A DNA stretch of 60,591 bases, counting the filler. It is 5 parts of 5 records of this genome, joined end to end, with 100 filler letters (N's around TTAATTAATTAA, not from the genome) between each part and the next. Parts side by side here need not be neighbours in the genome. Positions count along the whole stretch, not along the records: positions 36,636 to 55,186 come from DRR723986_21794; 4 more parts are not named here. The stretch is one strand, 5' to 3'. Below the pieces are notes generated by a model, which did no database searches, was not told the origin of the DNA, and saw only the letters and a list, made by a program, of their open reading frames with translations. This document shows positions 36,536-51,414 of the stretch, in pieces (position 1 is the stretch's first letter; each line of letters opens with the position of its first letter). The translations under genes were made by a program, and so were the position numbers.

Positions 36536-36635
36536 NNNNNNNNNNNNNNNNNNNNNNNNNNNNNNNNNNNNNNNNNNNNTTAATTAATTAANNNNNNNNN
36601 NNNNNNNNNNNNNNNNNNNNNNNNNNNNNNNNNNN
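36536..36635. other. Artificial contig linker
   Basis: N-run with TTAATTAATTAA. Confidence 0.97.
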
Positions 36636-36647
36636 CACCATCGAGCC
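36636..36647 (-). tRNA. Probable 5' fragment of a further tRNA cut by contig end
   Basis: GGCTCGATGGTG.. resembles acceptor 5' strand plus D-arm start at array spacing. Confidence 0.4.
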
Positions 36648-36661
36648 ATTTTGCAAACAAG

Positions 36662-36748
36662 CGGAAGGCAAGGGATTTGAACCCTCATCACCTCTGTGGT
36701 GGCACGCATTAGCAGTGCGGCCCGGCAAACCGTATCCGGCTACCTTCC
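36662..36748 (-). tRNA. tRNA-Ser(GCT)
   Basis: Acceptor GGAAGGT/GCCTTCC, G73, loop CT-GCT-AA, long V arm. Confidence 0.85.
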
Positions 36749-36759
36749 GTAAAGTTGAG

Positions 36760-36832
36760 TGGACCGAAAGGGAATCGAACCCTTCTCACCGATCTTGCAA
36801 GGATCAGTCGCCCCCTTGGAACATGCCAGCCC
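36760..36832 (-). tRNA. tRNA-Ala(TGC) copy 1
   Basis: G3:U70, loop CT-TGC-AA, A73. Confidence 0.85.
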
Positions 36833-36855
36833 ATTCGTCATCAAACATCACCCAG

Positions 36856-36926
36856 AGGTCCGTCCGGGAATTGAACCCGGTCTTCGTCCATACCACAGAC
36901 GCGTGCTGCCGCAACACTTACAGACC
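36856..36926 (-). tRNA. tRNA-Thr(GGT), atypical acceptor
   Basis: Loop GT-GGT-AT; acceptor GGTCTGT/ACGGACC. Confidence 0.65.
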
Positions 36927-36937
36927 TTGTTAGTCAG

Positions 36938-37010
36938 TGATCGCGGATGGAATCGAACCATCGATCTTCTGGTTGTCACCCAGACGTCTTCGCCGCTGGA
37001 CCACGCGATC
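36938..37010 (-). tRNA. tRNA-Val(GAC)
   Basis: Stem TCTGG/CCAGA, loop GT-GAC-AA. Confidence 0.88.
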
Positions 37011-37023
37011 GCTTTCTAACCAG

Positions 37024-37098
37024 TAGTCGAGATACGAGTCGAACCTACAAAATCACTTGGCTCTCGACCAAGTCGCTTTTCCGTTTGCGTACTCGACC
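37024..37098 (-). tRNA. tRNA-Leu(GAG), short V arm, C33
   Basis: Loop TC-GAG-AG; 7-nt variable region; imperfect T stem. Confidence 0.7.
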
Positions 37099-37105
37099 AT
37101 CGAAG

Positions 37106-37174
37106 TAGCGGATCCGGGGGTCGCACCCGGCGGTCCTGGCTTATGAGGCCTGGCTGAGCACTGGCCCATCCGCG
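37106..37174 (-). tRNA. tRNA-Met(CAT), initiator-like, short D arm
   Basis: C1xU72 mismatch, loop CT-CAT-AA, T-loop TGCGACC. Confidence 0.7.
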
Positions 37175-37192
37175 GTGTTGTTTGAACTGAAG

Positions 37193-37262
37193 TTGCAGGT
37201 CTCGGTATCGAGCCGAGCACACCGACCTCATGACGGTCAGTTGGACACCTGTCGCACCTGCA
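37193..37262 (-). tRNA. tRNA with CAT anticodon (Met or Ile2), atypical
   Basis: Acceptor TGCAGGT/ACCTGCA, loop GT-CAT-GA, T-loop CTCGATA. Confidence 0.65.
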
Positions 37263-37279
37263 AGGTTGTTTTTGAAAAG

Positions 37280-37377
37280 TAGCCAAGGCGAGAGTTGAAC
37301 TCGCACGCCACACTGTCTTCCAATTGCAGTGCACGACATTCTGGTGCCTGCGTGTCTACCGGTTCCACCACTTGGCT
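37280..37377 (-). tRNA. tRNA-Leu(CAG), degenerate anticodon arm and very long V arm (possible pseudogene)
   Basis: Leu-type D arm GTGGTGGAACCGGTAGACAC; 6-nt loop CCAGAA; about 29-nt variable region. Confidence 0.55.
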
Positions 37378-37396
37378 GTTTGGTGTTTGCAAGAAG

Positions 37397-37475
37397 TAGC
37401 GCGGGAGGGAGTCGAACCCACAGACATGTCACGGAGGTTTGAGCTCCGTCGCTTTACCGGTTTGCGTACCGCGCC
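37397..37475 (-). tRNA. tRNA-Leu(CAA), short V arm
   Basis: Stem CGGAG/CTCCG, loop CT-CAA-AC, A73. Confidence 0.85.
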
Positions 37476-37490
37476 GTTTGGATTGAAAGG

Positions 37491-37563
37491 CGTCCCCGAT
37501 CGGATTTGAACCGACGACCTCTTGCGTGACAGGCAAGCGAGCACTCCGCTGCTCCACGAGGAC
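37491..37563 (-). tRNA. tRNA-Asp(GTC)
   Basis: Loop CT-GTC-AC, G73. Confidence 0.9.
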
Positions 37564-37580
37564 TTGTTGTTTGCAAAAAG

Positions 37581-37654
37581 TACGGGCACTCGGATTCGAA
37601 CCGAGACTAACTGGTTGGAAGCCAATCGTGCTAGCCGTTGGACACTACACCCGC
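37581..37654 (-). tRNA. tRNA-Gly(TCC)
   Basis: Loop CT-TCC-AA; G1:U72, A73. Confidence 0.8.
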
Positions 37655-37666
37655 ATATGGTTTGAG

Positions 37667-37740
37667 TAGCTCAGGTGGGACTCGAACCCACAGCATCTCT
37701 GGTTCTAAGCCAAAGTGGTCTGCTAATTGCCTACCGAGCC
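37667..37740 (-). tRNA. tRNA-Leu(TAG), short V arm
   Basis: Loop CT-TAG-AA; 6-nt variable region. Confidence 0.85.
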
Positions 37741-37757
37741 ATGTTGATTGAACTGAG

Positions 37758-37828
37758 TGGAGCACCAGGGAATCGAACCCTGATCTTCTGCTTGCAACAC
37801 AGACGTCTTCCCGTTGGACGAGCGCCCC
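37758..37828 (-). tRNA. tRNA-Ala(TGC) copy 2
   Basis: G3:U70, loop GT-TGC-AA. Confidence 0.85.
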
Positions 37829-37891
37829 ATTTGTTTCGTGTAAGAAGAGAAAGTTGCAGCGTTGCTGGTTCGCCGCTTTCCAACTTTTCAG

Positions 37892-37965
37892 TACCCAGAG
37901 CAGGGATCGAACCTGCAAACACTCGGGTTTAAGCCGAGTCGCTCTGCCGATTGGCGTACCTGGGC
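37892..37965 (-). tRNA. tRNA-Leu(TAA), short V arm
   Basis: Stem CTCGG/CCGAG, loop CT-TAA-AC; 5-nt variable region. Confidence 0.85.
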
Positions 37966-37977
37966 GTTTTCAATAAG

Positions 37978-38049
37978 TAGTCCTGGATGGAATCGAACCA
38001 TCGTTTCCTGCGTGTAAAACAGGTGTCGTAGCCGTTGGACCACAGGACT
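37978..38049 (-). tRNA. tRNA-Val(TAC)
   Basis: Loop TT-TAC-AC. Confidence 0.88.
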
Positions 38050-38069
38050 GTGTTTGTCGATCCGGAGAG

Positions 38070-38140
38070 CACGTCCCCAAGGATTTGAACCCTGACTTAC
38101 TGGTTTGGAATCAGCAGTGCTACCGTTACACCAAGGACGT
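38070..38140 (-). tRNA. tRNA-Trp(CCA)
   Basis: Loop TT-CCA-AA, G73. Confidence 0.88.
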
Positions 38141-38148
38141 GTTTGAAG

Positions 38149-38233
38149 TGGGAACGCAAGGAATCGCACCTCTCGCCGACTACCACACAATTAAAGGCAG
38201 AAGGGTTACAACCTCCCGTGTGGAAACGCTCCC
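38149..38233 (-). tRNA. tRNA-Tyr(GTA)-like, lacking a D arm
   Basis: Acceptor GGGAGCG/CGTTCCC, A73, loop TT-GTA-AC; only 10 nt in place of D arm; long V arm. Confidence 0.7.
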
Positions 38234-38261
38234 AAGTTGTCAGTCAAAACTGACGTTGAGG

Positions 38262-38344
38262 CGGAAGCCGTGGGACTCGAACCCACAACGGTTTGACCCG
38301 CAGCTGTTTTCAAGACAGTGTCCTCATCCGGCCGGGTGACTTCC
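38262..38344 (-). tRNA. tRNA-Ser(TGA)
   Basis: Loop CT-TGA-AA, G73, long V arm. Confidence 0.85.
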
Positions 38345-38365
38345 GAGTGTTGCGATTGCTCGCAG

Positions 38366-38440
38366 TGACGTGAGCGGGAATCGAACCCGCGAACTCCTGG
38401 CTGAGAACCAAGCGATTCTGCCATCAGAATCTACCACGCC
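38366..38440 (-). tRNA. tRNA-Glu(CTC)
   Basis: Loop TT-CTC-AG. Confidence 0.8.
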
Positions 38441-38465
38441 ATAAAGTTGCTTCGTTTGAAGCGAG

Positions 38466-38537
38466 TACCGCATGGGAGTTTCGATCTCCCTCCTGCTGTT
38501 CGAAAGACAGCCGACCTAGCCAGTAGTCGAATGCGGC
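38466..38537 (-). tRNA. tRNA-Glu(TTC)
   Basis: Stem GCTGT/ACAGC, loop CT-TTC-GA, T-loop ATCGAAA. Confidence 0.8.
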
Positions 38538-38545
38538 ATGTAAAG

Positions 38546-38621
38546 GGTGACCAACCGGAATTGAACCGGCGACGAACTCATTCACAGTGAGTCTCTGGAA
38601 ACCAGCACCAGATCTGGCCAC
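38546..38621 (-). tRNA. tRNA-His(GTG), no encoded G-1
   Basis: Loop CT-GTG-AA, C73, acceptor GTGGCCA/TGGTCAC. Confidence 0.85.
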
Positions 38622-38623
38622 AG

Positions 38624-38694
38624 TCGGGTATCAGTGAGTCGCACACTGTCCATGCGTGGTCCCAAACCACACCGCTTACTCCAAGCTATACCCG
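38624..38694 (-). tRNA. tRNA-Pro(TGG)
   Basis: C1:G72, A73, loop TT-TGG-GA; T-loop TGCGACT. Confidence 0.85.
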
Positions 38695-38708
38695 CAATTT
38701 TCATTCAG

Positions 38709-38783
38709 CGCCGAGGACAGGAATCGAACCTGTGTTTGCCTGGTTCAGAGCCAGGTGCAACGACCAGCAGTTGCCGCCTCGGT
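38709..38783 (-). tRNA. tRNA-Gln(CTG)
   Basis: Stem CCTGG/CCAGG, loop CT-CTG-AA, A1xC72, G73. Confidence 0.82.
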
Positions 38784-38801
38784 GTTTCAACTTCCAAGAA
38801 G

Positions 38802-38869
38802 CACTCCGTCCGGGAATCGCACCCGATCAGCGGGCTTCAAAGGCCCACGTCGCGTCTACGCGCCGGAGA
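38802..38869 (-). tRNA. tRNA-Gln(TTG), short/degenerate
   Basis: Loop CT-TTG-AA, 68 nt, two acceptor mismatches, T-loop TGCGATT. Confidence 0.6.
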
Positions 38870-38890
38870 GAATTGAATTGAAAGAACAAG

Positions 38891-38965
38891 CTCCGGCGGC
38901 AGGGATCGAACCTGCGACTAAGCGATTAACAGTCGCCCTCCCGTACCAACACAGGACCCACCGGA
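38891..38965 (-). tRNA. tRNA-Asn(GTT)
   Basis: U1:A72, G73, loop CT-GTT-AA. Confidence 0.88.
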
Positions 38966-38973
38966 ATGTAAAG

Positions 38974-39046
38974 TGGCGGGAGACGGACTCGAACCATCGA
39001 CCTCCAGGGTATGAACCTGGCGAGCTACCAACTGCTCCATCCCGCA
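38974..39046 (-). tRNA. tRNA-Met(CAT), initiator-like
   Basis: TGCGGGATGGAGCAGTTGGTAGCTCG, U1xC72 mismatch, loop TT-CAT-AC. Confidence 0.88.
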
Positions 39047-39047
39047 A

Positions 39048-39118
39048 AGCGCCCAGCGAGAATTGAACTCGCGTCTTCTGCATGGCAAGCAGATGGGTTA
39101 CCACTACACCATGGGCGC
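39048..39118 (-). tRNA. tRNA-Gly(GCC)
   Basis: GCGCCCA/TGGGCGC, U73, loop TT-GCC-AT. Confidence 0.92.
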
Positions 39119-39134
39119 AAAATTGCATCACAAC

Positions 39135-39152
39135 CAAATTGTCAAAGATCAG
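39135..39152 (-). promoter_or_regulatory. boxA-like antitermination element
   Basis: CTGATCTTTGACAATTTG resembles rrn boxA (TGCTCTTTAACAATT). Confidence 0.6.
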
Positions 39153-39173
39153 GGATGCACAAGGCATCTAAAG

Positions 39174-39266
39174 AGCACCGAGTCGGAATTGAACCGACGT
39201 CCCCTCGTTACGACGGAGCGGGCACCGACACGTAGTGTTGGTCGATTGCCGCTAGACGATCAGTGC
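39174..39266 (-). tRNA. tRNA-Thr(CGT) carrying an extra ~20-nt hairpin (possible pseudogene)
   Basis: GCACTGA/TCGGTGC acceptor, loop GT-CGT-AA, 93 nt. Confidence 0.6.
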
Positions 39267-39280
39267 TTGTTGTATTTCAG

Positions 39281-39353
39281 TGGGACCGGTGAGAATCGAA
39301 CTCACATCGTTCGGTTTAAGAGACCGATGCATTACCTTGTCTGCCACAATCCC
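39281..39353 (-). tRNA. tRNA-Lys(CTT)
   Basis: Stem TCGGT/ACCGA, loop CT-CTT-AA. Confidence 0.88.
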
Positions 39354-39380
39354 AAATTGTGTTTTCGTTGTTTCGTTCAG

Positions 39381-39453
39381 TCGGCGTGGCGGGAATCGAA
39401 CCCGCGACCGTCGCCTTATAAGGACGCCGCTCTTACCCCTGAGCTACACGCCG
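39381..39453 (-). tRNA. tRNA-Ile(TAT)
   Basis: Perfect acceptor CGGCGTG/CACGCCG, canonical D and T arms, loop CT-TAT-AA. Confidence 0.88.
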
Positions 39454-39465
39454 ATGCGTAGCAAG

Positions 39466-39538
39466 TGGGGCCGGAGAGATTCGAACTCTCGCCGAACGGA
39501 TTAAAAGTCCGTCATGCTGCCAGTTACACCACAACCCC
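39466..39538 (-). tRNA. tRNA-Lys(TTT)
   Basis: Stem ACGGA/TCCGT, loop CT-TTT-AA. Confidence 0.9.
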
Positions 39539-39577
39539 AAGAATGATCTGGGGTATGCGTTTCAATCGCTGAAGCAT
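39524..39577 (-). CDS. Putative 17-aa peptide MLQRLKRIPQIILGVVV inside the array
   Basis: AAGGAGA SD 8 nt upstream of ATG; ORF ends inside tRNA-Lys(TTT). Confidence 0.4.
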   Translation of the reverse strand: MLQRLKRIPQIILGVVV

Positions 39578-39610
39578 GTTTGGGTTCTCCTTCGTGTTCG
39601 TTGTCGTAAG

Positions 39611-39682
39611 TGGTAGCCCCGAGGATCGAACTCGGCACAACCTCGTTATCAGCAAGGCCTGGACAACCAGCCCTCGACTACC
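39611..39682 (-). tRNA. tRNA-Ile(GAT)
   Basis: Loop CT-GAT-AA, A73. Confidence 0.85.
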
Positions 39683-39735
39683 ATTTGTTTCGTGACGCCG
39701 ACCGTCGTTCCGTCGGCGCATATCTTCCTTGTCAG

Positions 39736-39807
39736 TGGGCCGGGAGGCGCTCGAATCCTCGTCTGCGGTTCTTCAGACCGCCGCTAGACCGTCTCAGCTA
39801 CCAGCCC
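39736..39807 (-). tRNA. tRNA-Phe(GAA), first gene of array
   Basis: Stem GCGGT/ACCGC, loop CT-GAA-GA. Confidence 0.88.
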
Positions 39808-39843
39808 ATGTTGGGTTGTTGGGGTTGTCTCGATTTGGACACG

Positions 39844-39878
39844 AAAAAAGGCTCGATGCCTGCGTGACACCGAGCCTT
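39844..39878 (-). terminator. Intrinsic terminator (attenuator) upstream of array
   Basis: AAGGCTCGGTGTC-ACGCA-GGCATCGAGCCTT 13-bp stem ending in a T6 tract. Confidence 0.8.
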
Positions 39879-39909
39879 CATGTAGAAAGCAATTCGCTTG
39901 AAGCGAGTG

Positions 39910-40068
39910 TCACGTGAGCAATTTCGTACCCATCGAATACATTTCCGGGGAATTACCGGGCAGAAACGTACTGGCTAAGTGTTCATTCACACTGCACCAA
40001 TCGCTACCGCCGAAGGTATGCCCTTCGTGTATCCGTTCGATTCGCGTTTGTTGCTGTTTGGTAAACAT
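39910..40068 (-). CDS. Putative 52-aa leader peptide of the tRNA array
   Basis: MFTKQQQTRIERIHEGHTFGGSDWCSVNEHLASTFLPGNSPEMYSMGTKLLT*; below ORF-track cutoff; stop lies within antiterminator CGTGACAC. Confidence 0.55.
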   Translation of the reverse strand: MFTKQQQTRIERIHEGHTFGGSDWCSVNEHLASTFLPGNSPEMYSMGTKLLT

Positions 40069-40130
40069 CAGAAAGCTCTTACTCGCATTGCTAATTCAAA
40101 ATTGGGTATGACTTGTTGCGTCGGAGGTAA

Positions 40131-40157
40131 TAGACGCTCCTCATTCGGAATGGTTCA
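40131..40157 (-). promoter_or_regulatory. Candidate ECF-sigma promoter
   Basis: TGAACC-N15-CGTCTA about 60 nt upstream of leader ATG. Confidence 0.45.
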
Positions 40158-40374
40158 CGAAGAATCTGGTTTCTTCGGTAGTGGACGAGGCAACGAGTCC
40201 GTTTGGTAATTTCGCGATCATCAGGGACTCGTCACCTCGTCCACTACCCTTTCACACGGAAGTCAAACGAATCCGCCGCCGCATTTGTACTCGCATGATT
40301 TCAGAGACGCCCGAGATCGTACAATGCAATTACGAAGAACCAGACGCAAGACGCAATCCATTGATCAACTCGCG

Positions 40375-40502
40375 ATGAACATGAATCCAAATGAAACGGC
40401 CTTTCGTTCGGCCACGACGGAAGACCGCGACCAGATCCTCTCCGTACACCGTGACGCTTTCGATGAAGAAGGCGAGATCATTTCCTCACTCGTAGCCGAG
40501 AT
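40375..40502 (+). pseudogene. GNAT acetyltransferase 5' fragment
   Basis: MNMNPNETAFRSATTEDRDQILSVHRDAF..., duplicates start of 45158 gene, then diverges. Confidence 0.75.
40397..40502 (+). repeat. 106-bp direct repeat, copy 1
   Basis: 6 mismatches versus 45158-45263. Confidence 0.92.
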
Positions 40503-40538
40503 CCGACGGTACCGTACTCGGCAATGGGGCGACAGCCT

Positions 40539-41453
40539 TCAAGAAACAATTGCGGCAGCGTTTCTGAGCCAGTCGCAAAAGATGCGATTAGCTTCATGGA
40601 ATGCATTTTCTGGACTACAGACAAAATAGTATGCGCGTTCCGACTGAATTGCATCTCGTCCAAGACGAACAAGGCGACCTTGATCTAAATCTGCGCGCAC
40701 AAATGCGAGTGGAACAAGCGCCACTCCTATGCCTGCCTTGGCAGCATCGACCAGCATGTGGAAGTGTTCGAATGTCGGGCCATCCGGGCGTCTCCGTTCT
40801 TGGTCTCTTGCATGAAACCACTCTTCCCAACCCTGCGGACGGGTTGAGTGCTGTAGCAACGGCAGCTCTCCGATAATCGCGTCGGCATCGAAATCCGTTT
40901 CAGCTCCTGCAATTCGATCTGGTGAGACGACCGGGACCAGCTGCTCGTCCATGAACTTTTCCGATTTCAGCCCTGGCCAGTGTCCGTCGCCGAAAAAGAG
41001 TCCAGCATCAATCCAACCGCCTTGCAGATTTGGCGATCTTTCTGGTGACGCAAAATCCAGATCCAAGGTAACAACGTGGAGACTAGTCTTGGGGTGCTGC
41101 TCGATGAAACTTGGTAGCCGAGGAATCAACCAGTAGGTTGCCAAGGAGGGGAGTGCACCAATTCGCAATCGGTGAACTCCTTTATTGCTTATCAGATCCG
41201 TAGTCGCTGATTCAATCCGGTCTAGCGCTGCCGAGAGCGAGTCGCGATACTGAAGTCCTGCATCGGTAAGTTTCAATCTTTGTTTGACGCGTTGGAAAAG
41301 TATCACGCCAAGATCGGATTCAAGCTGAGCCACCTGCTGACTAATTGCACTGGCCGATACGGACAACTCATTTGCAGCCGCGGAAAAGCTCTCATGCCGA
41401 CCCGCAGACTCAAAGGCTCGGATCGCATTTAGGGAAGGTGTCGCTCTTCTCAT
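40539..41453 (-). CDS. LysR-family regulator (GcvA-like)
   Basis: PSLNAIRAFE..RHESFS.AA.EL.VS.SAISQQV; substrate-binding domain. Confidence 0.93.
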   Translation of the reverse strand: MRRATPSLNAIRAFESAGRHESFSAAANELSVSASAISQQVAQLESDLGVILFQRVKQRLKLTDAGLQYRDSLSAALDRIESATTDLISNKGVHRLRIGALPSLATYWLIPRLPSFIEQHPKTSLHVVTLDLDFASPERSPNLQGGWIDAGLFFGDGHWPGLKSEKFMDEQLVPVVSPDRIAGAETDFDADAIIGELPLLQHSTRPQGWEEWFHARDQERRRPDGPTFEHFHMLVDAAKAGIGVALVPLAFVRADLDQGRLVRLGRDAIQSERAYYFVCSPENAFHEANRIFCDWLRNAAAIVS

Positions 41454-41610
41454 CCGTTGCGATTTTCGATCGAGGGAGTCGTTTGTGAGTCAGCAAGGAC
41501 AGCTCCCCCTCTGGCGACCGTGCGAGCAGTATCGCAGCCAGAAAAAGGCGAGGCGGTATCAGGAGATACCACCTATGTTTATCTTGCAGGATTGGCGGAG
41601 TTGCAACCTG

Positions 41611-43179
41611 TCATTGGCTTATACTACGGGACTTTAAGTCATACGTTTCGCCAGCTTTTAAGATCACCGGCTTAAAGCCGTTCTTCCCGGGCTCCAGGTC
41701 GTAAAACGAAACGGCGTTTGGGCCAAGGACTCGGCCGGTGTGGCCTTTTACAACCAGCGCCGTTCGCTCATCAATTCCGATCCCAAGCATCTGTGGATAC
41801 TGTTTCATCAGCTCAAGAAACGGTCCATGTCGATCGCGTTGCAGGAAGTGAGCGTCGATGATAACTCCCTTCAGCAACCCCATGCCACGTGTGTAGCCCG
41901 CGTGGACTATATCCTTGTTGGTAAGCGGGTTACCACGAACCAGAAAATCGCTGGGAACCTGGCAACCGGCGGAACTGCCGCCGACCACGCCGCCTCGCTT
42001 GAGAACTTCCGCGATCAGTTCTTCAACTCGTGTGCCCTCGTAACTGTCCATGAAACGATAGGTGCGACCACCGTCAATCCAAACGCCGGTTGCTGCGTTT
42101 AGCGTCCGAGCGAATTCTTCGCTCTCGTCTGCGATAAGTGGATCATCGGTGTGGAGAGTTGTGTAGTTTGAGTGACCGAGTTCGTGAAGAAGCCCAGCTG
42201 CATACGAGTCCGGTAAATCAGGTAGTTCAAACCGTTGCGCGCTGGGGATACAAACGATATAAGCTTCTTTGCCGCCTGCGATATTGACGAATTCACGCAT
42301 GATGTCTTTGGGGATTCCGGAGCCACCGTGGAGGAATAGCGTCCCGGTAGCAACCTCAGGCGTTGGCGCTGTCATCGGCGGGAACACAGGACGACTGCGT
42401 TCATTCGCCGACCGAACCCAGGAAAACAGGTCGAGTCCGTAAGACGGATAGCTACCTCCGTTGAAGACATCTGGGCATTCGAATGTTCCTCGCTGCTCCG
42501 GCCATCCACCAGCCTCTTGCACTATTGCACTGATGTCCGCGTCACCATAACCCGCGACTCGTCGACCGCTGTGAAAGACTGCTACTGATGAATCAGGAAT
42601 GAGCCAGTGGACCTTCTGAAATGAAGCATCGGATCTGGGCGACGGATTCTTCCCGAAGTGAAAATCTGATTTTACAAATGGTGATTCAAGTCTTCTGGCC
42701 GGGTCATTCTCATCAAGCTCCTTCAGCACTGAAACGGATGATGAGCCAACAGCAATCACACCATTTCGCTGAGTGACATTCTTGAGCAAAGCTAACAGTA
42801 GACGCCTCTGCGCGAGTCCGTTCAACTTCCCTTCGATCCAGATACCACTGGTATTGAGCAGTTGCAGTGACAGCGATTCTGCATCAGTTGGTATCGCCTC
42901 AACGACCGCAACCGAACCTGCTCCGTTTTTCTTCAACCGAGTTTCGGTAACCCTAGCGGCCCCATCGAGATCAATGACAACGACGTTTGGCGAACTTTCC
43001 CCGCACAAATGCAAGAAACACTTTACAGTGTATGTGGCCACGTCTCCGTCGCCGACAACCATTCGCGAACCAACAATTGGTCGTAGATGAGCACTCTTCT
43101 CTGGCAGTTGGGCACTGGCTGTCGCTGCGACAATCGCAAGAAGGATAATGGTAAACAGATTCTGAATTTTGGGGTACAT
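41611..43179 (-). CDS. Exported cyanophycinase-like peptidase (S51)
   Basis: GGSSAG nucleophile, IDAHF.QRDR, GIDERTA; signal peptide. Confidence 0.85.
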   Translation of the reverse strand: MYPKIQNLFTIILLAIVAATASAQLPEKSAHLRPIVGSRMVVGDGDVATYTVKCFLHLCGESSPNVVVIDLDGAARVTETRLKKNGAGSVAVVEAIPTDAESLSLQLLNTSGIWIEGKLNGLAQRRLLLALLKNVTQRNGVIAVGSSSVSVLKELDENDPARRLESPFVKSDFHFGKNPSPRSDASFQKVHWLIPDSSVAVFHSGRRVAGYGDADISAIVQEAGGWPEQRGTFECPDVFNGGSYPSYGLDLFSWVRSANERSRPVFPPMTAPTPEVATGTLFLHGGSGIPKDIMREFVNIAGGKEAYIVCIPSAQRFELPDLPDSYAAGLLHELGHSNYTTLHTDDPLIADESEEFARTLNAATGVWIDGGRTYRFMDSYEGTRVEELIAEVLKRGGVVGGSSAGCQVPSDFLVRGNPLTNKDIVHAGYTRGMGLLKGVIIDAHFLQRDRHGPFLELMKQYPQMLGIGIDERTALVVKGHTGRVLGPNAVSFYDLEPGKNGFKPVILKAGETYDLKSRSISQ

Positions 43180-43244
43180 AAGAACTTTCAATCAGTTGCG
43201 TCAAAATGTAATGGAGAGAATCGAAGAGTTATCCAGCAAAGTGA

Positions 43245-43676
43245 TCAAGTCGCAACAGCCGCGACGAGGGCAATCTCAACCGGCGCATCACGAGGTAAAC
43301 TGGCTACACCAATTGCCGCACGAGCCCCCAGGCAACATTCCCCCAAACGTTCAGTGACCAAGTTCCAGGCGAAGTTGGCCAATGCCGCATGGGAGGTAAA
43401 GCCTCTTGAGGTATTGATGAACACATTAAGCTGTAGGACCAATGAGATGCGTTCGTCTTTTCGAAGGCAATTTCCGGCGGCAACTAGCACGTTGGTTGCG
43501 GCCAGTTCGACGGGCTCGCGATGCAATTCAAGGTCGTCGTCCACGCTCAAAGGGCCGGTGTATTTCAGCTCCACCGCTTCGCGTGGCGTCATCCCGGATG
43601 TGTAGGTGACGTCAGCATGACGAACGGCCGTAATGTACCGGACTTGCGGATTCGGTTGCGCGGTGATGCCGGTCAT
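43245..43676 (-). CDS. RidA/YjgF-like (Atu1372-type) protein
   Basis: YTSGMTP, ARAAIGVASLP.DAPVEI; ATGA overlap with aminotransferase stop. Confidence 0.82.
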   Translation of the reverse strand: MTGITAQPNPQVRYITAVRHADVTYTSGMTPREAVELKYTGPLSVDDDLELHREPVELAATNVLVAAGNCLRKDERISLVLQLNVFINTSRGFTSHAALANFAWNLVTERLGECCLGARAAIGVASLPRDAPVEIALVAAVAT

Positions 43677-44884
43677 GCTCTGTAGAACTCCACCATTTGA
43701 ACGATGCGTTCGGTTGCAGCGACCGCAGCTTTGCGATCTTGCGAATAGTTCAGTCGGAAGCAACTGTTCATTGCCGGAGCGAACTCGGTTCCTGGTGTGA
43801 CCGTCACGCCGGCTTGGTGCCTTAGCAAGCTGACAAACAATTGAAGATCGACTGTCAGTTCAGGCAACTGCGGAAACAAGTAACTTCCGGCTTGCGGCGT
43901 TGCCGTCAAAAATCCCGCATTGCGAAACACGGTCAGCAGGTCGTCGCGAATCTCTTCATGCTCGTTGATACGTTGTTGAATCCAGCCATCAGGTTCGTTG
44001 AACCACGTCTCCAAAGCGGCCTGACTGTACCCCGCAGCTCGCAGAGACACGATCGCCTGAAGACGCTCCATGCGTTCAATCAAAGTTGGCGAACCGATCG
44101 CTACCCCCAAACGAAAACCGCTGAGTGATTCGGTTTTGGATGGCCCCATGATGGTAATCATGCTTTCCGGAGCATGTTCGCTGGCTCGCAGATGCCAATA
44201 CGTCTCACCCGAATACAGCAACCGCGAATACAGTTGATCTACGACCAGAGCCACGCCGTATTGATTTGCCAGCCGAGCGATGGCGTTGATCTTCCCTTGC
44301 GGATAGATTACCCCCGTCGGGTTATTGGGGTTTGAGAATACGAAGACTTTCACGCCCTGCTTGAATGCGTCTTCCAGTCGCTGCATATCGGGGCCGACGT
44401 CCGATGCCTGGCTTTGATACTGAAGCGGAATCGGCACTATTTCACCGCCGAAGAACTGAACCAGTTTACGATTGGCAAAGTAGTCTGGTTCCATAACGGC
44501 CGCCCTGGTGCCGGTGGTCACCGTGGTTCCCAAAGCTAGAAAAAGAGCTCCCTGAGTTCCCGGCGTCAGAATCAGTTCGTCCGTCGCATCAATCGTTCGG
44601 CCCGTGAACTCAGCCAGTCGTGATGCTACCCCATCACGGATTGCCGCAGATCCTCGGTACTCGGTGTAGGCCTGCTGACCGCCGCGGTGAAAGCCTCTCT
44701 GCCATGCTTCCAGCGTTCCCGGCGTCGGCTTAAATGCATCGATATTGCCGTGTGAGAAATCGACGGGCACACCGCCCAAGTATTCGCCCTGCTTGGCGTG
44801 TTCAAAATCTGTCGTGCCGATTCGCACTTCTTGGCCGGGAGCATTCTTGACGCCCAACAATTCAAACTTCTGTTCGAGGTTCAT
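43673..44884 (-). CDS. PLP-dependent class I/II aminotransferase
   Basis: SNPNNPTG, DQLY, GPSKTESLSGFRLG. Confidence 0.9.
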   Translation of the reverse strand: MNLEQKFELLGVKNAPGQEVRIGTTDFEHAKQGEYLGGVPVDFSHGNIDAFKPTPGTLEAWQRGFHRGGQQAYTEYRGSAAIRDGVASRLAEFTGRTIDATDELILTPGTQGALFLALGTTVTTGTRAAVMEPDYFANRKLVQFFGGEIVPIPLQYQSQASDVGPDMQRLEDAFKQGVKVFVFSNPNNPTGVIYPQGKINAIARLANQYGVALVVDQLYSRLLYSGETYWHLRASEHAPESMITIMGPSKTESLSGFRLGVAIGSPTLIERMERLQAIVSLRAAGYSQAALETWFNEPDGWIQQRINEHEEIRDDLLTVFRNAGFLTATPQAGSYLFPQLPELTVDLQLFVSLLRHQAGVTVTPGTEFAPAMNSCFRLNYSQDRKAAVAATERIVQMVEFYRA

Positions 44885-45157
44885 TGGTGTACATCCCCAA
44901 GGACGCTAAATAACCTTTTTGCATTTCCGTCATTTGCTTCATCTTAATGAAACAGTCCGGCGAACCTACTCCCTGAAGAACTTCAAGCTTGATTAGCCCA
45001 GCTTTCGAAGCTCAAGTTGAAAGAGTTAGAGAATCGTCCAATTCTGCTCTCTACTGTTCGTTGCCGAGTACGGTTATGCGACTAGTGGGCGTGTCGTCTG
45101 CAACCAAAAAAACAAGGAACTGTTCGCTGCTGCACCGCTCTCGATCATCCCCAGTAT

Positions 45158-45263
45158 CGGCCCTTCGTTCGGCCACGCCGGAAGACCGCGACCAGATCCT
45201 CTCCGTCCACCGTGACGCTTTCGGTGAAGAAGGCGGGATCATTTCCTCGCTCGTAGCCGAGAT
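45158..45263 (+). repeat. 106-bp direct repeat, copy 2
   Basis: Matches 40397-40502. Confidence 0.92.
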
Positions 45264-45693
45264 GCTCGACGATCCAACGGCAGAACCAATCCATTCATTC
45301 GTTGCCGAGCAAGGCGATGCGATTGTTGCACACGTGCTCTTCACAGCAGTGCGGATCGAAACGCGTGAAGTGTCCGCACAGATACTCGCTCCACTGGCGG
45401 TCGCGTTCGATCACCAAAGAAGCCGGCTCGGCACGAAGCTAGTCAACGAGGCGCTTACTCAACTCGAATCGAAGGGCGTCGCCTTGGTCTTTGTCCTTGG
45501 CTACCCTGACTACTACACACGCTTCGGCTTTGCTCCGGCCGGTACGCAGGGCTTCGACGCTCCGTATCCCATTGCGCCCAAGAATGCGGACGCATGGATG
45601 GTCAAGGAACTACAACCGGGAGCGATCGAAAGCAACGCAGGGACCGTCCGCTGTTGCACCGCTCTCGACCAACCTCAATATTGGCAAGAGTAG
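45158..45693 (+). CDS. GNAT acetyltransferase (YhbS-like), native start apparently lost
   Basis: LAPLAV...Q...LG, VLG.PDYY.RFGF; upstream in-frame extension looks non-homologous. Confidence 0.75.
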
Positions 45694-45718
45694 ACAGGCC
45701 GTAACGGTTAGTTTTCGT

Positions 45719-47542
45719 CTAGTTCCAATAAATCAACGCTTTCTTGAGCGTCCCCTCGCCACGCGAAGAAATGTGGTCCGACATGTACATTCGCCGAACT
45801 TCGGTGAAACCTGATATGACGGGAATACTCTTGTCGGTTACCTGCGTATCCATGAAGCTGAAATCACGCAATCGTGTCAGCTCCGCAAGTTCAGCTATAC
45901 CCGCGTCAGTCACCTGAGTTTCACTGAGACTTAAGTCCGAGAGATTTGTGAGCTTGCCAATAAACTTCATCGCGAGGTCCCCAACCGCGGTTTCATAAAG
46001 AGACAGCGAATCTAGCTTCTTGAGCGGCAAGAGTTTCTCAAAGGCTTCGTCGGTTACCATCGTGCTGTCGAGCACGAGACTTCTAAGCGCAGTCAGCTTG
46101 GCGATTGATGCGAAACAACCACTGGTGACTCTTGTTGAGTCAAGGTCGAGGCATTCTAGCCTATTTAGGTTCTCCAGATGGTTCAGCCCGGCATCGGCGA
46201 TGCCTGTGTATCGCAACCCCAAGCTCTTGAGTTTGTGCAAGCCAGATAAGGCAGCCAAACCAGAATTCGAGATCGGACATGATTCTAAGTCAAGAGACTC
46301 GAGGTTCTCCAAACCGCCAACAAGCATCAGTCCCTCATCAGACACTTGGCTGCGACTAAGGTTCAGAGTTCGAAGCGATGACAATGTCACAAGCTGTTTC
46401 AAATTTTCGTCGGAAAGCAGCTTTGTTGGTAAATCAACTCTTCGCAATTCAGGCAAGTTGGCGAGCATTTTCACACATTCAATTGTCACCTCAGTCCGCG
46501 TAAGGTCGAGTGACTGCAGCTTGGGCATTGACGCAAGATAGGCCACTCCTTCGTCAGAGATTTGTGTACCGGCCAATGAAAGTTCTATCAGAGGCAGTTT
46601 CGAAATTCCTGCGAGATCGTGATTCTTGATTTTCGTTTGCGAAAGATCGACGCATCGAAGCGCTCGCAGATTCGCAAGGTCGCCTAACATTGCCTCTGAA
46701 AACTCGCAATTCTGAAAGCTGACGGTTGCAAGAGTGTCGTTTATTGAAGTGACTTTTGAAAGATGCGACAGTGTCGTTGCATTATCAGTCCGCGTATCCG
46801 GAAGTCCCACTTCCGTAATGACAACGTCGCCTTTTGGAATTGGGGAATGCAGGCTGTTAAAGAATTGAATCTCGCCATCAATATCCGGGAACTGAACATG
46901 TCCCCCCAGACCAAGAATCCACAATGCAACTTCTCGGGGGTCTGCATCAGCGTCAGGCAACGGTCGCAGGTTTTCAACATATTCACGCGCAACCCATCCC
47001 GCCTCTAGGCCATTAAAGGAATCGGCGTGGGAGCGAGCATACTTGCCAAGTATTCTCAGTAGTTCCTTGTCAGCAGCATAGAACGCATTGGTCGCTGAAT
47101 TGATCACCTGATTCTTCTCATTGCTTAACGCATCGAGATAGTCTCCACGGTCAACCCAGTCTGATTGGGTCTCTGAGTTGGGAAAGACCGAAATCGCTTG
47201 CCTTATTGCTGCAACAGAAGCAATCGCCCCAATCTCCTCGAGGGCAACCATCAGTTCCTCAGTATCCAGATCGGATCGGAAGAACGCCCATAGGCCGCCG
47301 TTTCCAATGAGCCCAGAAGCATTCCAAACTGTACGTACTACTTGCTGAGGCCTGGGAAGCTCGTCTTCCGAGGAGTCTGGAATCGCGCCGGCTAGTGCAT
47401 TCACCAGACTGAAATCGTCGCTGTCGTCAAAAAGTTTTCTTAAGACTGGATCCATGGCCTCATCATCAGCTTTACCGGGGGTGTTCGAACATCCTGCGAA
47501 CACCACAGTCACAATCGCTACGAAAGAACAGACACTATGCAT
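45719..47542 (-). CDS. Lipoprotein with DMP19/DUF4375-like domain and leucine-rich repeats
   Basis: FAGC lipobox; NGG...FF...ALEEIGA; LxxLxLxxTxIxD repeats. Confidence 0.78.
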   Translation of the reverse strand: MHSVCSFVAIVTVVFAGCSNTPGKADDEAMDPVLRKLFDDSDDFSLVNALAGAIPDSSEDELPRPQQVVRTVWNASGLIGNGGLWAFFRSDLDTEELMVALEEIGAIASVAAIRQAISVFPNSETQSDWVDRGDYLDALSNEKNQVINSATNAFYAADKELLRILGKYARSHADSFNGLEAGWVAREYVENLRPLPDADADPREVALWILGLGGHVQFPDIDGEIQFFNSLHSPIPKGDVVITEVGLPDTRTDNATTLSHLSKVTSINDTLATVSFQNCEFSEAMLGDLANLRALRCVDLSQTKIKNHDLAGISKLPLIELSLAGTQISDEGVAYLASMPKLQSLDLTRTEVTIECVKMLANLPELRRVDLPTKLLSDENLKQLVTLSSLRTLNLSRSQVSDEGLMLVGGLENLESLDLESCPISNSGLAALSGLHKLKSLGLRYTGIADAGLNHLENLNRLECLDLDSTRVTSGCFASIAKLTALRSLVLDSTMVTDEAFEKLLPLKKLDSLSLYETAVGDLAMKFIGKLTNLSDLSLSETQVTDAGIAELAELTRLRDFSFMDTQVTDKSIPVISGFTEVRRMYMSDHISSRGEGTLKKALIYWN

Positions 47543-48033
47543 GACGGATGCTCTCCAAACAGACAGTCGACAGAAAAGATCTTAGGAGTTCAAAGTCCTG
47601 GACTCAACTAGACACAAATCAGCTCACTACTGAGCCAAAAATAATTAGCAAGAATCCGGAGTCCAGAACACAATCTATCAGTCTCCAATGGAAGCCTCGA
47701 CAAGACAGCCACCACTGCAATCGCCGTTGCTAAGAATCTCACCTTTGCTTTCCGGCGCACAAGCGCTGGCCACCGAGGTAGGCCACCCCCAAACAGTCGG
47801 TAAATCGTCGATGAACCCATCTAGTTGTTCTGCGAAGTCTTCGGCAAACCCAGCGTCATCTTCAAACACTACGAACGAATCAATCCGCGCCAAGTGCCTG
47901 CGATGCTCGCCCAGCCAAAGCCAACGGAGAAGAAGTTAACAGCCAGCGAGTCTTACCTACCCGGTTCACACCCGGACCGACGAAAGAAATCAGTTGGGTA
48001 GGCCGAGAGTCTACGAGTAGCTCCGCACCGAAC

Positions 48034-49497
48034 TCAACTGTCTGCGGGCGGCTTGAAAGATGTTCTAAGTGGAATGATCCGATCGTGTAGCGCTTGCATC
48101 TCATATTGAATGCGGCTGTCGTTTCTCTGCTGAGCTAGCTCGCCAATTGTTGGAAACGGATCGCTTGAGGGCTCATGCGGATTGCGAGATTCCCAGTCGG
48201 TCACGATTGCTTGAGCTTCAGCGTCACGCGACTCACAAAGTGCCGATCGGAGGTCGGTTGTCATCTCTTGGTCATCGCTTTCACTAAGCGCTACAGCAAG
48301 CTCTTTTCTAGACCACGGCAGATCAATTACAGCAAGGGCGGCAGCCATCTCAATTCGATTGATTGGAATATGCGATCTGAGCGATCGGCGAATCAACTTC
48401 ATCGCGGCTGGATGCTGCAACTCCATCGCCAGGAAAGCCGCCTCACTAAGTGAACTGCCCTGGATTACCTCGAATCCTGGTGCTACCGAATCTGTCTCTC
48501 CAATTGAGCACAGCAGCTTTGCCGTCCGAACCCAAATGTATGGCGAAGGAGGCTGTTCATTGGGGTCAATTCGATCAATCAGCGCGAGCAAACTTGGCTT
48601 CCAGTCGTGTATTGCGCTTCTTTGTTCAATAACGTCCAAGGCTACTGACAATGCTCCGCACGGAGGCCCAGACAGTGGGAGCTTGATGCAAGAATCGAGT
48701 TGCGGTGAGCCAAGATCTGCGAGTAGCAACAATGCTTCGGCAGCGTTCTTACCGGAATGGAAAGCGTCTGATAGTTGCTCAGACTTCGTCGCCAGTAGGG
48801 AATCGGCATCAGAACAATAAGTTCCGTCAAACTCACTCAGCATCTGCCAATCTGAGAGGGCGGCAGCGAACAAGGCTTGAACCCCTCGGAATTCCCACTG
48901 TTTGCCAATCCCGTCGAGAACACTAGTCAGTTCCTCAATGGGGCCACGTAAACGAAATTCGCTGTACTCGCCGGACTCTATTAACCCCAATTCCTTGAGC
49001 TCATCGATTCCAATCAATACGCATCGACGAGATGAATACAACTGGCAAATTCGTTTCTCAATAAAGCTAGGCTTCTCAAGCGAATCGAGGTAGTTGATGA
49101 AAAAGTAGGGAGTAAACCAGTCTGCGGTTTCATCAAAAAAATCAACATCGATCTCTTCACCCGTCAGTCGGTGCGTCATGCAGCAACCACGGCCATGGAA
49201 GCGATACTCCCAATTCGAGTTGCCTGGAACCAAGCCGAAGCGAGCCCCTTGGGGATGCCCGAGAGCACCGGCTGCAGCGATCACAGTGGGATCCCCGTTC
49301 AGGCGGAGCTTCATGCTGTCCAACACAAACTTCTGACGTGTCCGATGGCGCACAAGGCACAAATACAGCCAACTCGCCCATGGCGAAAGGTCGAGCGGTC
49401 GATCAACGAAATGCGGTAAATAACGCGTCCATCTATCCTGGCCCCGCAAAACGGCGTTTAACCGTTGCAAAATTTCAGTTGCCGCATCCGAATTCAT
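48034..49497 (-). CDS. Hypothetical protein with W.Y.FHG.GC (DUF6896-like) domain and helical C-terminus
   Basis: WEYRFHGRGCC...GEEIDVDF. Confidence 0.6.
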   Translation of the reverse strand: MNSDAATEILQRLNAVLRGQDRWTRYLPHFVDRPLDLSPWASWLYLCLVRHRTRQKFVLDSMKLRLNGDPTVIAAAGALGHPQGARFGLVPGNSNWEYRFHGRGCCMTHRLTGEEIDVDFFDETADWFTPYFFINYLDSLEKPSFIEKRICQLYSSRRCVLIGIDELKELGLIESGEYSEFRLRGPIEELTSVLDGIGKQWEFRGVQALFAAALSDWQMLSEFDGTYCSDADSLLATKSEQLSDAFHSGKNAAEALLLLADLGSPQLDSCIKLPLSGPPCGALSVALDVIEQRSAIHDWKPSLLALIDRIDPNEQPPSPYIWVRTAKLLCSIGETDSVAPGFEVIQGSSLSEAAFLAMELQHPAAMKLIRRSLRSHIPINRIEMAAALAVIDLPWSRKELAVALSESDDQEMTTDLRSALCESRDAEAQAIVTDWESRNPHEPSSDPFPTIGELAQQRNDSRIQYEMQALHDRIIPLRTSFKPPADS

Positions 49498-49548
49498 CTA
49501 CACAGGATTCCAACAGTCGATACGAAGTAATTTCAACCTCCTCAAATT

Positions 49549-49842
49549 CTAGCGAGAAGCCAGCCGAACAATCGATTCGATGCCAAGTTCCATCTTTTTG
49601 CGGGCGGAGATATTGGCTAAGTGAACCTTGATCTTGGGCGGAACAAAATTGCTGGTTGCAACTTGCTCTTCAATCCACTTGATCACGTCGTAGCCTGTTC
49701 CGCGATTGTCATCTCCCAAGTCGTGGTCGAGGCTGAGCTCAGTCACACGCTCTGACTGAAGCAATTGAATAGCTTCATCCGGCCAATAAACTCGGACCCA
49801 ACCTCTCGGCGATTCTCTCTCGTCGTCAAGATAAACCTTCAT
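49549..49842 (-). CDS. Cyclic-phosphate processing receiver (cREC)-like domain protein
   Basis: YLDDER..P.GW, SLDHDLG, TGYD, VH.AN. Confidence 0.8.
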   Translation of the reverse strand: MKVYLDDERESPRGWVRVYWPDEAIQLLQSERVTELSLDHDLGDDNRGTGYDVIKWIEEQVATSNFVPPKIKVHLANISARKKMELGIESIVRLASR

Positions 49843-50663
49843 GCTTTTTCACTTGTGAGAATCACGACTCTTGCGTCGACATTGAGCACCTGGGTTCCGT
49901 TCGAGAGCATCGCCAGTGGCTCTTTCCAGTGTGAATGCCCTCGGACAATGAGTGCTGACTCTGCTTGTTCGACGACTTGCCTGATCCTTGGTGATCCCCG
50001 ATGCCCAGAGTCTGGCACGTCGGGGCCATCATGCATATTGACAATAGCCGGAGAGTCACAGAGTAGCAGTTCGAGTGTTTCAACGAAGTCGTCTTCCGTT
50101 CGTCGCCATGGGCGTCTTGGATTGCCGGGGATACCACTCAATCCAGCGATCGAGAGCCCTTCCATCGTCACAGTGTCGTTGTCGAGAAAGTGCATTGGCT
50201 TTGGGAAGCGAGGACGAGTTGCAGCGTCACCGAAAAGGTCATGATTACCAGCAACCCCAACGACCCAATCGAAGGTTCTAAAGAACGCGTGCCAGACAGA
50301 AGTCACGTCGCCAGATCCACCGCGTTTGTCGAGTGTAGGCACTGTGTAGAAGTCGCCCGCCAAAAGAACTCCGATTCGTCCTTCGCCTATGCTGAGATTC
50401 GGAATGATCTCTTCGGCGAGAAGCTTTGGCAGCACTTCACCGAGTAGACGGATCGGTTTTCCGACCGACGACTTAAAGGTCTCGCGTCCTTGCAGATCTG
50501 CGGTCGCGATGATCGCTGACACTCCCTCCGGCAGCTCATCCACAAATCCACGGTGGACCGGCAGCGTATCTCGGTAGAAACCGCCCGGCCCTCGGCCAGC
50601 ATTCAGGAATGGAATCTCCCGAATCAGTTCAGGTTGAATCGATGTAATCCTCATTCCGGCCAA
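49839..50663 (-). CDS. Calcineurin-like metallophosphoesterase
   Basis: ADLQG, AGD, GNHD, HDGP, GHSH; 4-nt overlap with cREC gene. Confidence 0.85.
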   Translation of the reverse strand: MAGMRITSIQPELIREIPFLNAGRGPGGFYRDTLPVHRGFVDELPEGVSAIIATADLQGRETFKSSVGKPIRLLGEVLPKLLAEEIIPNLSIGEGRIGVLLAGDFYTVPTLDKRGGSGDVTSVWHAFFRTFDWVVGVAGNHDLFGDAATRPRFPKPMHFLDNDTVTMEGLSIAGLSGIPGNPRRPWRRTEDDFVETLELLLCDSPAIVNMHDGPDVPDSGHRGSPRIRQVVEQAESALIVRGHSHWKEPLAMLSNGTQVLNVDARVVILTSEKA

Positions 50664-50898
50664 GACACATCAACGAACCACCTGGTTCAAGCAAAGGGAC
50701 TTGGAACGCAAGCTTGGATCGTCTCTCTGGCGTCTCTCAATTGGCAAGGGGAGATTGTGAGATGTTCTGGCGATATCTCACAGGATTGAAACGCGATCTT
50801 GGGAGTCACGCTTGTTTTCGAGAGAAAACGTCTCAGAGGCGCGAGACTTCGTCGGCCAAGAGAAAGTGCCGCGAGGCCCGGAAATCAGGGGCCAAACT

Positions 50899-50937
50899 AA
50901 AAAACGCCCGACGGCCTGATCTCGGCTTCCGGGCGTT
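50899..50937 (-). terminator. Probable terminator of tRNA-Asn
   Basis: AACGCCCG...CGGGCGTT then T-tract. Confidence 0.55.
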
Positions 50938-50974
50938 AACTGTACGGTCGGTAATTCCGTAGTACTTACAAAAG

Positions 50975-51047
50975 CTCCTCCGGCAGGGCTCGAACCTGCG
51001 ACAAGGCGGTTAACAGCCGCCTGCTCTACCAACTGAGCTACAGAGGA
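50975..51047 (-). tRNA. tRNA-Asn(GTT), canonical housekeeping
   Basis: TCCTCTGTAGCTCAGTTGGTAGAGC...CTGTTAA...GGTTCGAGCCC. Confidence 0.95.
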
Positions 51048-51414
51048 TTGTGATCAGGCTTCAACGCCCAACCGCAAGAAATTTACTCGGTGGTTGAGAT
51101 GGTTGCAAGCCCAGAAAGGTTCACTTCTACACCCAAAAGCAATTGCCGTAACAATCAGGTAGGATACAACAGTCTTGGCGGTATTCAGGGCAAATTCGGC
51201 TCCCCAGTCAACCACCAAACGAGCGCTTAGGGCCAAGAATACGCCGCAAAGTCTGGTCGACGATTCGCGACTTCGTCTGCTCCAGCATTAGCACTCGCAA
51301 TTTCGCACAAAACAGAATTAGAACTCGAGCCCCGACCGCTTGAGCACGGAACTCGGGATCGCGTCCTCTGCATGACTTAACGATTGCATTTCCGAAGAAC
51401 TCGCCCCCAGGTGC

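Follow-up and report, generated by a model that had tools for sequence, protein, structure and literature searches.

The 60,591-nucleotide (nt) stretch of DNA analysed here, called the window throughout, carries on its minus strand an 85-nt tRNA-Tyr-like element (38149-38233; G1 at 38233, discriminator A at 38149) located inside a long tRNA array. This element is real and belongs to a conserved family of structured RNAs, which is certainly a selected, tRNA-like family bearing the identity marks of tyrosine. Judged from its sequences, the family appears to be a tRNA with a new core topology, in a D-hairpin-less shape previously reported only from mitochondria, and the element is probably the gene of an accessory tyrosine tRNA that would have spread with its rewired core on mobile long tRNA arrays. 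An initial annotation of the window, made from the letters alone, had proposed the sequence and coordinates of the element, which stand on re-reading, and had called it 'D-armless'. This description is right as far as the missing D hairpin is concerned and calls for a qualification, since a helix resembling a D stem is still built, from other strands.

The architecture was read from a position-by-position parse of 33 sequences, namely the window copy and 32 full-length homologues. At its 5' end, the RNA begins with an acceptor stem of 8 base pairs (bp), from which a linker of 2 nt leads to the 5' strand of a helix uniting the D-replacement region with the variable region (the D/V helix), then to one nucleotide and the anticodon arm. 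Then follow one nucleotide, the 5' strand of the variable stem, a first loop (L1), the 3' strand of the D/V helix and a second loop (L2) of 4-6 nt. The molecule ends with the 3' strand of the variable stem, two nucleotides, a T arm directly joined to the 3' strand of the acceptor stem, and the discriminator. The crossing of the D/V helix with the variable stem makes a pseudoknot of the core. [quoted passage not shown] The acceptor branch amounts to 12 bp (8 + 4), and the T and anticodon loops count 7 nt each.

In the window copy, whose features all lie on the minus strand, the eight acceptor pairs join positions 1-8 (38226-38233) to positions 77-84 (38150-38157); the latter strand is placed by the consensus fold and by covariation, and seven of the eight pairs display changes on both sides. 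The linker (positions 9-10, 38224-38225) is unpaired in the consensus structure. The D-replacement strand CCACAC (positions 11-16, 38218-38223) pairs with GTGTGG (positions 46-51, 38183-38188), and three of these six pairs covary. The anticodon arm (38200-38216) combines a 5-bp stem, four pairs of which covary, with the 7-nt loop TTGTAAC carrying GTA at 38207-38209. The variable stem is formed by GCC (positions 36-38, 38196-38198) and GGC (positions 57-59, 38175-38177), with one covarying pair. Between its strands, the A/T-rich loop L1 (positions 39-45, 38189-38195) varies in both length (4-10 nt) and sequence among family members, and loop L2, TAGTC (positions 52-56, 38178-38182), is a proposed stand-in for the D loop that would contact the T loop. 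The T arm (38158-38172) has a 4-bp stem and the 7-nt loop TGCGATT, where a G replaces the canonical U55. The terminal CCA is not encoded in the gene.

At the level of the family, the case against chance is decisive; the fold is carried by an alignment of 25 distinct sequences in which 26 pairs define 650 pair cells. Standard pairs occupy 99.1% of these cells, against 79.0% in shuffled alignments, and both sides have changed at 16 of the 26 pairs; none of 500 shuffles attained any of the pairing measures, and when partners were shifted by one to three columns, pairing fell to 44-58%. Covariation is present in all five helices. Among the 33 parsed sequences, the D/V helix exists in 14 sequence versions, each preserving five or six of the six pairs, and the variable stem in six versions, each with all three pairs. 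RNAalifold applied to the 25 sequences recovered the nested part of the structure unguided and added the eighth acceptor pair, between position 8 and the base following the T stem, which is U-G in 15 sequences and G-C in the other 10.

Several details of the initial annotation could be weighed against this alignment. The 10 nt counted between a 7-bp acceptor stem, as it was then read, and the anticodon stem are there, as are the intact anticodon loop (7 nt, GTA, T at position 33, A at position 37) and the short GCC/GGC stem, which is real and crosses the D/V helix. The D/V complementarity, claimed over 7 bp, is genuine over the 6 bp CCACAC/GTGTGG; a seventh pair between G17 and the last base of the preceding loop was rejected, being G-G in two members (L005 and L019) and lost in divergent ones. 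A T stem of 5 bp, which would include an A-G mismatch, is likewise not kept in the family and gives way to a 4-bp T stem and an 8-bp acceptor stem. Compensatory change in the D/V helix had been set beforehand as a test, and three of its six pairs do change on both sides in the 25 sequences. No homologue with a normal D arm was encountered, all 32 full-length homologues keeping the rewired architecture. With the architecture kept and the helix covarying, the suggestion of an alternative tRNA architecture or a mimic or decoy gains support.

The marks of tyrosine identity are equally well preserved. The anticodon is GTA in 32 of the 33 sequences, the discriminator A (A73), as initially annotated, is found in all 33, G1-C72 in 31, and the anticodon-loop pattern YUGUAAN is retained in nearly all members. 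The family thereby carries the bacterial tyrosine identity set of A73, G1-C72 and a GUA anticodon, as given in the part of PMC9976931 available to us. A second pattern relates the two loops that would touch each other: L2 is TGG in 14 of 14 members whose T loop reads TTCGATT or TTCAATT (one with an extra leading G), whereas among the 17 members whose T loop is TGCGATT, 16 have A as the second base of L2. Such a distribution would be expected of an L2 acting as G18-G19 against T-loop positions 55-56, and we treat it as a hint because two lineages alone may explain it. An RNA of the same rewired architecture with the anticodon TAT was observed in a Planctomycetota array (L119, 1501-1584, plus strand); its acceptor stem is accompanied by a D/V helix of 5 bp, the variable stem UCC/GGA of 3 bp and a T stem of 4 bp, and that array also holds a canonical tRNA-Tyr.

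Homologues were collected with an exact 24-mer of the element and with a two-block pattern made of the anticodon and T loops. The 24-mer matched one contig of the IMG/VR database, and scans of that database with the element, the two-block pattern and a word of the neighbouring tRNA-Trp returned the same single contig each time. The two-block pattern detected 20 loci in metagenomes, 16 of them true copies, and 26 loci in genomes, 21 of them true copies. The genome loci include complete chromosomes and belong to named Pirellulaceae (Stieleria, Rubripirellula, Rhodopirellula, Aporhodopirellula, Roseiconus, Neorhodopirellula and Bythopirellula) and to related metagenome-assembled genomes (MAGs), with one locus in a MAG of the Verrucomicrobiota. 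Thirteen distinct sequences were counted among 39 occurrences (the window and 38 loci). Over 37 loci, identity to the window copy is 98.2% in the element outside the pattern blocks and, in a crude ungapped comparison, 33.5% in the 40 nt upstream and 54.7% in the 40 nt downstream, which means that the spacers drift around a conserved gene. In the Verrucomicrobiota copy (L035), 10 pairs differ on both sides and every pair is kept. Broken copies were observed as well: the sequence is replaced from the T arm onward at L070 (1501-1584), an insertion destroys the GTA loop at L076 (1501-1590), and the 5' strand of the D/V helix is missing at L118 (1501-1577).

Two covariance models delimited the family further. 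The first, built from the first-found copies, scored the window gene at 112.1 bits and was applied to three samples of 151 genomes each. It matched 21 genomes in the sample of the Pirellulaceae family, at 46 to 112 bits, two in that of the family to which the Verrucomicrobiota MAG belongs, and one, the seed genome only, in a phylum-wide Verrucomicrobiota sample. At E<=1e-3, the second model had matches in 23 of the 151 Planctomycetota sampled, of which only eight reached 40 bits; the weaker matches that were inspected proved to be ordinary housekeeping tRNA-Tyr partly aligned. At E<=1e-6, the same model found none in 151 genomes of the phylum of a Richelia locus, taken as Cyanobacteria, and none in 151 genomes of the phylum of a Mariniflexile locus, taken as Bacteroidota. 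The element has no blastn match in GenBank phages or PLSDB plasmids, and the whole array compared with phages gave ordinary tRNA-level matches, none over the element among the best 30 of 139.

The array that holds the gene (36661-39807, minus strand) begins at a contig break, where the contig 36636-55186 opens next to the N linker 36536-36635, and contains 29 genes called by ARAGORN in 3.15 kb, for a total of about 31 tRNA genes; the thirtieth ARAGORN gene of the window, at 50974, lies outside it. It satisfies the definition of an L-array, at least 20 tRNA genes on one strand with at least two per kb, as worded in the available text of PMC4758250. The element stands between tRNA-Trp(CCA) (38069-38140) on one side and tRNA-Ser(UGA) (38263-38344) on the other. 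At all 47 loci scanned with ARAGORN it was inside a tRNA array, and it occupies one of two slots: the window and Verrucomicrobiota types precede tRNA-Trp, and several divergent types follow tRNA-Leu(CAA). In four Pirellulaceae genomes (G002-G005), the arrays have no other Tyr gene recognised by ARAGORN within the stretches examined, that of G002 comprising 17 amino-acid specificities called by the same program. All four genomes possess a canonical housekeeping tRNA-Tyr elsewhere, in a Thr-Tyr-Gly-Thr cluster, which was located by means of a blastn seed, a weak-pattern search having matched mostly other tRNAs; the Verrucomicrobiota MAG likewise carries a canonical tRNA-Tyr. A single tyrS was present in each of five host genomes checked, and it lies far from the array in the three genomes having both on one chromosome.

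The IMG/VR contig (L140-L142, 55119 bp) is a provirus, complete according to CheckV, with the array at its far end. It encodes a serine integrase, a helicase, a primase, a large terminase, a portal, a head protease/capsid and a tape-measure protein, and the array may be part of the phage or merely adjoin the provirus. A Sak4-like protein, a ParB-methyltransferase fusion and a queuine tRNA-ribosyltransferase-like protein are also encoded there. A sigma-70 promoter scan of the window array returned no site. A strong terminator-like hairpin of 14 pairs followed by a T run (39847-39879, minus strand) precedes the array, some 40 nt upstream of its first gene, and is conserved in the provirus copy.

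Standard tools pass over this family. ARAGORN left the 85-nt element of the window uncalled, as it did at 46 of 47 loci, the exception (L116) being an odd 100-nt call over its element. A scan with Rfam models found no family over 38149-38233 at E<=1, including RF00005, the canonical tRNA model, and the tRNA-Sec (selenocysteine tRNA) model RF01852 had no match on the element; RF00005 matched 21 neighbouring genes, 20 of them at or above its 29-bit gathering score. Since both tools are blind to the element, such arrays appear tyrosine-free, which constitutes an annotation gap. Folding of the window element alone also gives weak evidence, with a z-score of -1.85 and 10 of 200 shuffles equal or better.

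The element is present in RNA libraries, which falls short of proof of transcription or of a mature tRNA. Words were sampled over 277 nt around it, and 46-63% of them occur in each of fourteen metatranscriptome runs from 11 studies, of marine, salt-marsh, biofloc, hypersaline, leaf-litter and seawater origin. Contigs spanning the element were obtained in three runs from three studies: X1 (38068-38391, depth 78), X8 (38068-38239, depth 41) and X2 (38144-38440, depth 10).

Taken together, these data are best explained by an accessory tRNA-Tyr with a rewired core, which we judge the likeliest reading because the parts needed for charging, EF-Tu binding and decoding are all kept, because the element fills the Tyr slot of otherwise near-complete arrays, and because bacterial translation tolerates a tRNA that has no D arm (PMC11551756). 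In the mechanism that we propose, the 6-bp D/V helix would stack on the anticodon stem and replace the D stem, and the short loop UGG or UAG would touch the T loop as a D loop does, so that the RNA would still be L-shaped. It would be excised from the array transcript and receive CCA, after which the single tyrosyl-tRNA synthetase (TyrRS) of the host would charge it and UAY codons would be read. The extra tRNA-Tyr would travel with the horizontally mobile long array, at least one such array standing at a prophage end. More speculatively, the altered core may evade enzymes that attack, or need, a normal tRNA-Tyr core. The strongest form of this proposal, a first natural non-organellar tRNA that works without a D hairpin, is charged by TyrRS, is used by the ribosome and is maintained and spread by prophage-linked arrays because its core escapes the nucleases or modification enzymes of normal tRNA-Tyr, is one that we advance tentatively, as a possibility short of even chances.

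Several observations weigh against the tRNA-Tyr reading. Canonical tRNA-Tyr genes are also found in five arrays (L009, L013, L023, L042 and L066), and the rewired copy is therefore not always the sole Tyr gene of its array and may do something else; its origin by recent deletion from such a canonical array gene was rejected, the sequence of that gene being unrelated. Position 55 of the T loop is a G in the main subtype, one member has C33, and a U-U mismatch interrupts the acceptor stem of L002. Decay has affected the three copies at L070, L076 and L118. The contigs from RNA libraries reveal neither strand nor ends and may derive from DNA carry-over, and a run searched at the level of raw RNA reads (X23) gave no placed read, hence no test. 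Finally, mature ends, CCA addition, charging and decoding are steps that we infer.

Some of these points would fit a tRNA mimic, an RNA made and folded without decoding, which would act as a decoy for a nuclease directed at tRNA-Tyr or bind TyrRS or another tRNA-binding protein. We consider such a mimic unlikely, and it stays in play because of the coexistence of canonical Tyr genes in some arrays, five in number, and of the prophage linkage, one array lying at the end of a provirus that CheckV rates complete and that has genes for integrase, terminase, portal and tape measure. The non-standard T loop of the main subtype is compatible with it, and the available texts of PMC11555353 and PMC12673091 describe how Retron-Eco7 degrades host tRNA-Tyr and how phage tRNAs rescue infection. 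However, a nuclease decoy would require just the part recognised by the nuclease, whereas the 12-bp acceptor branch, the 7-nt GUA loop, the discriminator and G1-C72 are all kept under selection, and the rewired gene is the only one of Tyr type in several otherwise near-complete arrays.

Far less probable is another kind of structured RNA, whose true fold would be the alternative minimum-energy structure and whose anticodon-like loop would be incidental. For the window sequence this structure, in which part of the anticodon stem has other partners, reaches -30.3 kcal/mol against -24.5 kcal/mol for the nested model (pseudoknot uncounted), an advantage of 5.8 kcal/mol and a further point to the detriment of the tRNA-Tyr reading. 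The minimum-energy fold of the single sequence was rejected, as it is not kept in the family; covariation at four of the five anticodon-stem pairs, the YUGUAAN loop of nearly all members and the tRNA-like consensus fold of the 25 sequences speak for the nested structure. The least credible reading, a decaying tRNA-Tyr pseudogene born from a local D-arm deletion, would account for the failure of ARAGORN and Rfam, the unremarkable single-sequence folding and the three clearly broken copies, but not for compensatory changes at 16 of 26 pairs, the new helix included, for an architecture kept across Planctomycetota and Verrucomicrobiota, or for a gene 98% conserved between diverging spacers. On these aligned sequences, both the pseudogene and the alternative-fold readings are contradicted by the covariation.

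The window and its array present other features. The window is made of five contigs joined by N runs around the TTAATTAATTAA linker (12948-13047, 21054-21153, 36536-36635 and 55187-55286). The GC content of its pieces ranges from 41% to 66% and type IX secretion sorting domains are found on one neighbouring contig; the bin may therefore be mixed. The tRNA-Ser(UGA)-like gene adjoining the element (38263-38344, minus strand) escapes ARAGORN here, although the program calls Ser(tga) for its homologues in L019, L042 and L064. Its score with the tRNA-Sec model is 30 bits, and blastn aligns it at 80-84% with unannotated spots in Streptomyces phage tRNA clusters. With a length of only 75-80 nt, four array tRNA-Leu genes (37023-37098, 37396-37475, 37666-37740 and 37891-37965, minus strand) are too short to accommodate the long variable arm that a bacterial tRNA-Leu should have, and related arrays have the same lengths. 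A 94-nt gene called Val(tac) by ARAGORN (39173-39266, minus strand) resembles, by eye, a 72-nt Thr(cgt) gene of related arrays (such as L002, 910-981) into which about 22 nt have been inserted. The 180-nt gap 37099-37278 (minus strand) contains two tRNA-like elements that were left uncalled and whose anticodon-like loop carries CAT; the first (37193-37262, 70 nt) folds with a 3-bp mini D arm, the second overlaps a 29-bit Tymo_tRNA-like match at 37088-37172, and an odd 99-nt Ile(aat) call (37279-37377, minus strand) adjoins the gap. The gene at 39380-39453 (minus strand), called Ile, has the anticodon TAT, which is uncommon in bacteria, and is present in most related arrays. The tRNA-His gene (38545-38621, minus strand) measures 77 nt and scores 24 bits against the tRNA-Sec model; tRNA-His species of the (8/4) type, according to the accessible text of PMC5389517, occur in phage tRNA clusters.

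All known bacterial tRNAs have been described as cloverleaves, and natural armless tRNAs as mitochondrial only (PMC11551756, 2024). If our reading is true, a selected and widespread bacterial tRNA with a different core breaks this cloverleaf-only rule, the L shape can be reached through another strand topology, and a natural scaffold becomes available for orthogonal tRNA/synthetase pairs. The family also provides a concrete object for asking why mobile tRNA arrays carry structurally odd tRNAs. In the literature on tRNA arrays, D-armless or non-canonical tRNAs and phage tRNAs, we encountered neither this Tyr family nor any tRNA of bacteria or phages that is devoid of a D hairpin, with the reservation that the supplements of PMC5389517 and PMC8421152 might list such genes.

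The closest natural counterparts by the criterion of a missing D hairpin are the mitochondrial D-armless tRNAs, namely mammalian and nematode mt-tRNA-Ser. These have an unpaired connector, a short variable region and a floppy Y shape, whereas the rewired tRNA-Tyr has a covarying 6-bp connector helix, a long variable region and a pseudoknot stem; the former reside in organelles, the latter in bacterial chromosomes and a provirus. [quoted passage not shown] The tRNA-like structure of bromoviruses, as presented in the consulted part of PMC9976931, resembles the rewired RNA as a non-cloverleaf molecule with A73 that mimics the Tyr anticodon and is charged by TyrRS. It belongs, in contrast, to the 3' untranslated region of plant viruses, has the eukaryotic C1-G72 identity, is unused in translation and shares no homology with the rewired tRNA-Tyr in sequence or architecture.

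With respect to genomic setting, the window array is comparable to the L-arrays described in the accessible text of PMC8421152, which are long, dense, one-strand collections of supernumerary tRNA genes, horizontally spread and reported in seven phyla including Planctomycetes and Verrucomicrobia. Their content is given there as ordinary tRNAs and some pseudogenes, with no mention of an armless member in that text, from which the supplements may differ. The (8/4) tRNAs and allo-tRNAs of phage clusters share with the rewired tRNA-Tyr an 8-bp acceptor stem, a 4-bp T stem and an organization in gene clusters; the text of PMC5389517, as far as it was available and supplements aside, mentions no Tyr species and no D/V pseudoknot among (8/4) tRNAs. 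The 6-bp D stem with a 4-nt loop of tRNA-Sec, according to the available text of PMC7609411, is akin to the 6-bp D-like helix of the rewired RNA, whose succession of 8-bp acceptor stem, 2-nt linker and 6-bp D-like helix resembles tRNA-Sec and the (8/4) tRNAs alike. As these partial sources describe them, the (8/4) tRNAs, allo-tRNAs and tRNA-Sec all retain the D hairpin, and their identity is Ser, His or Sec, whereas the rewired RNA dispenses with the hairpin and combines a GUA anticodon with A73.
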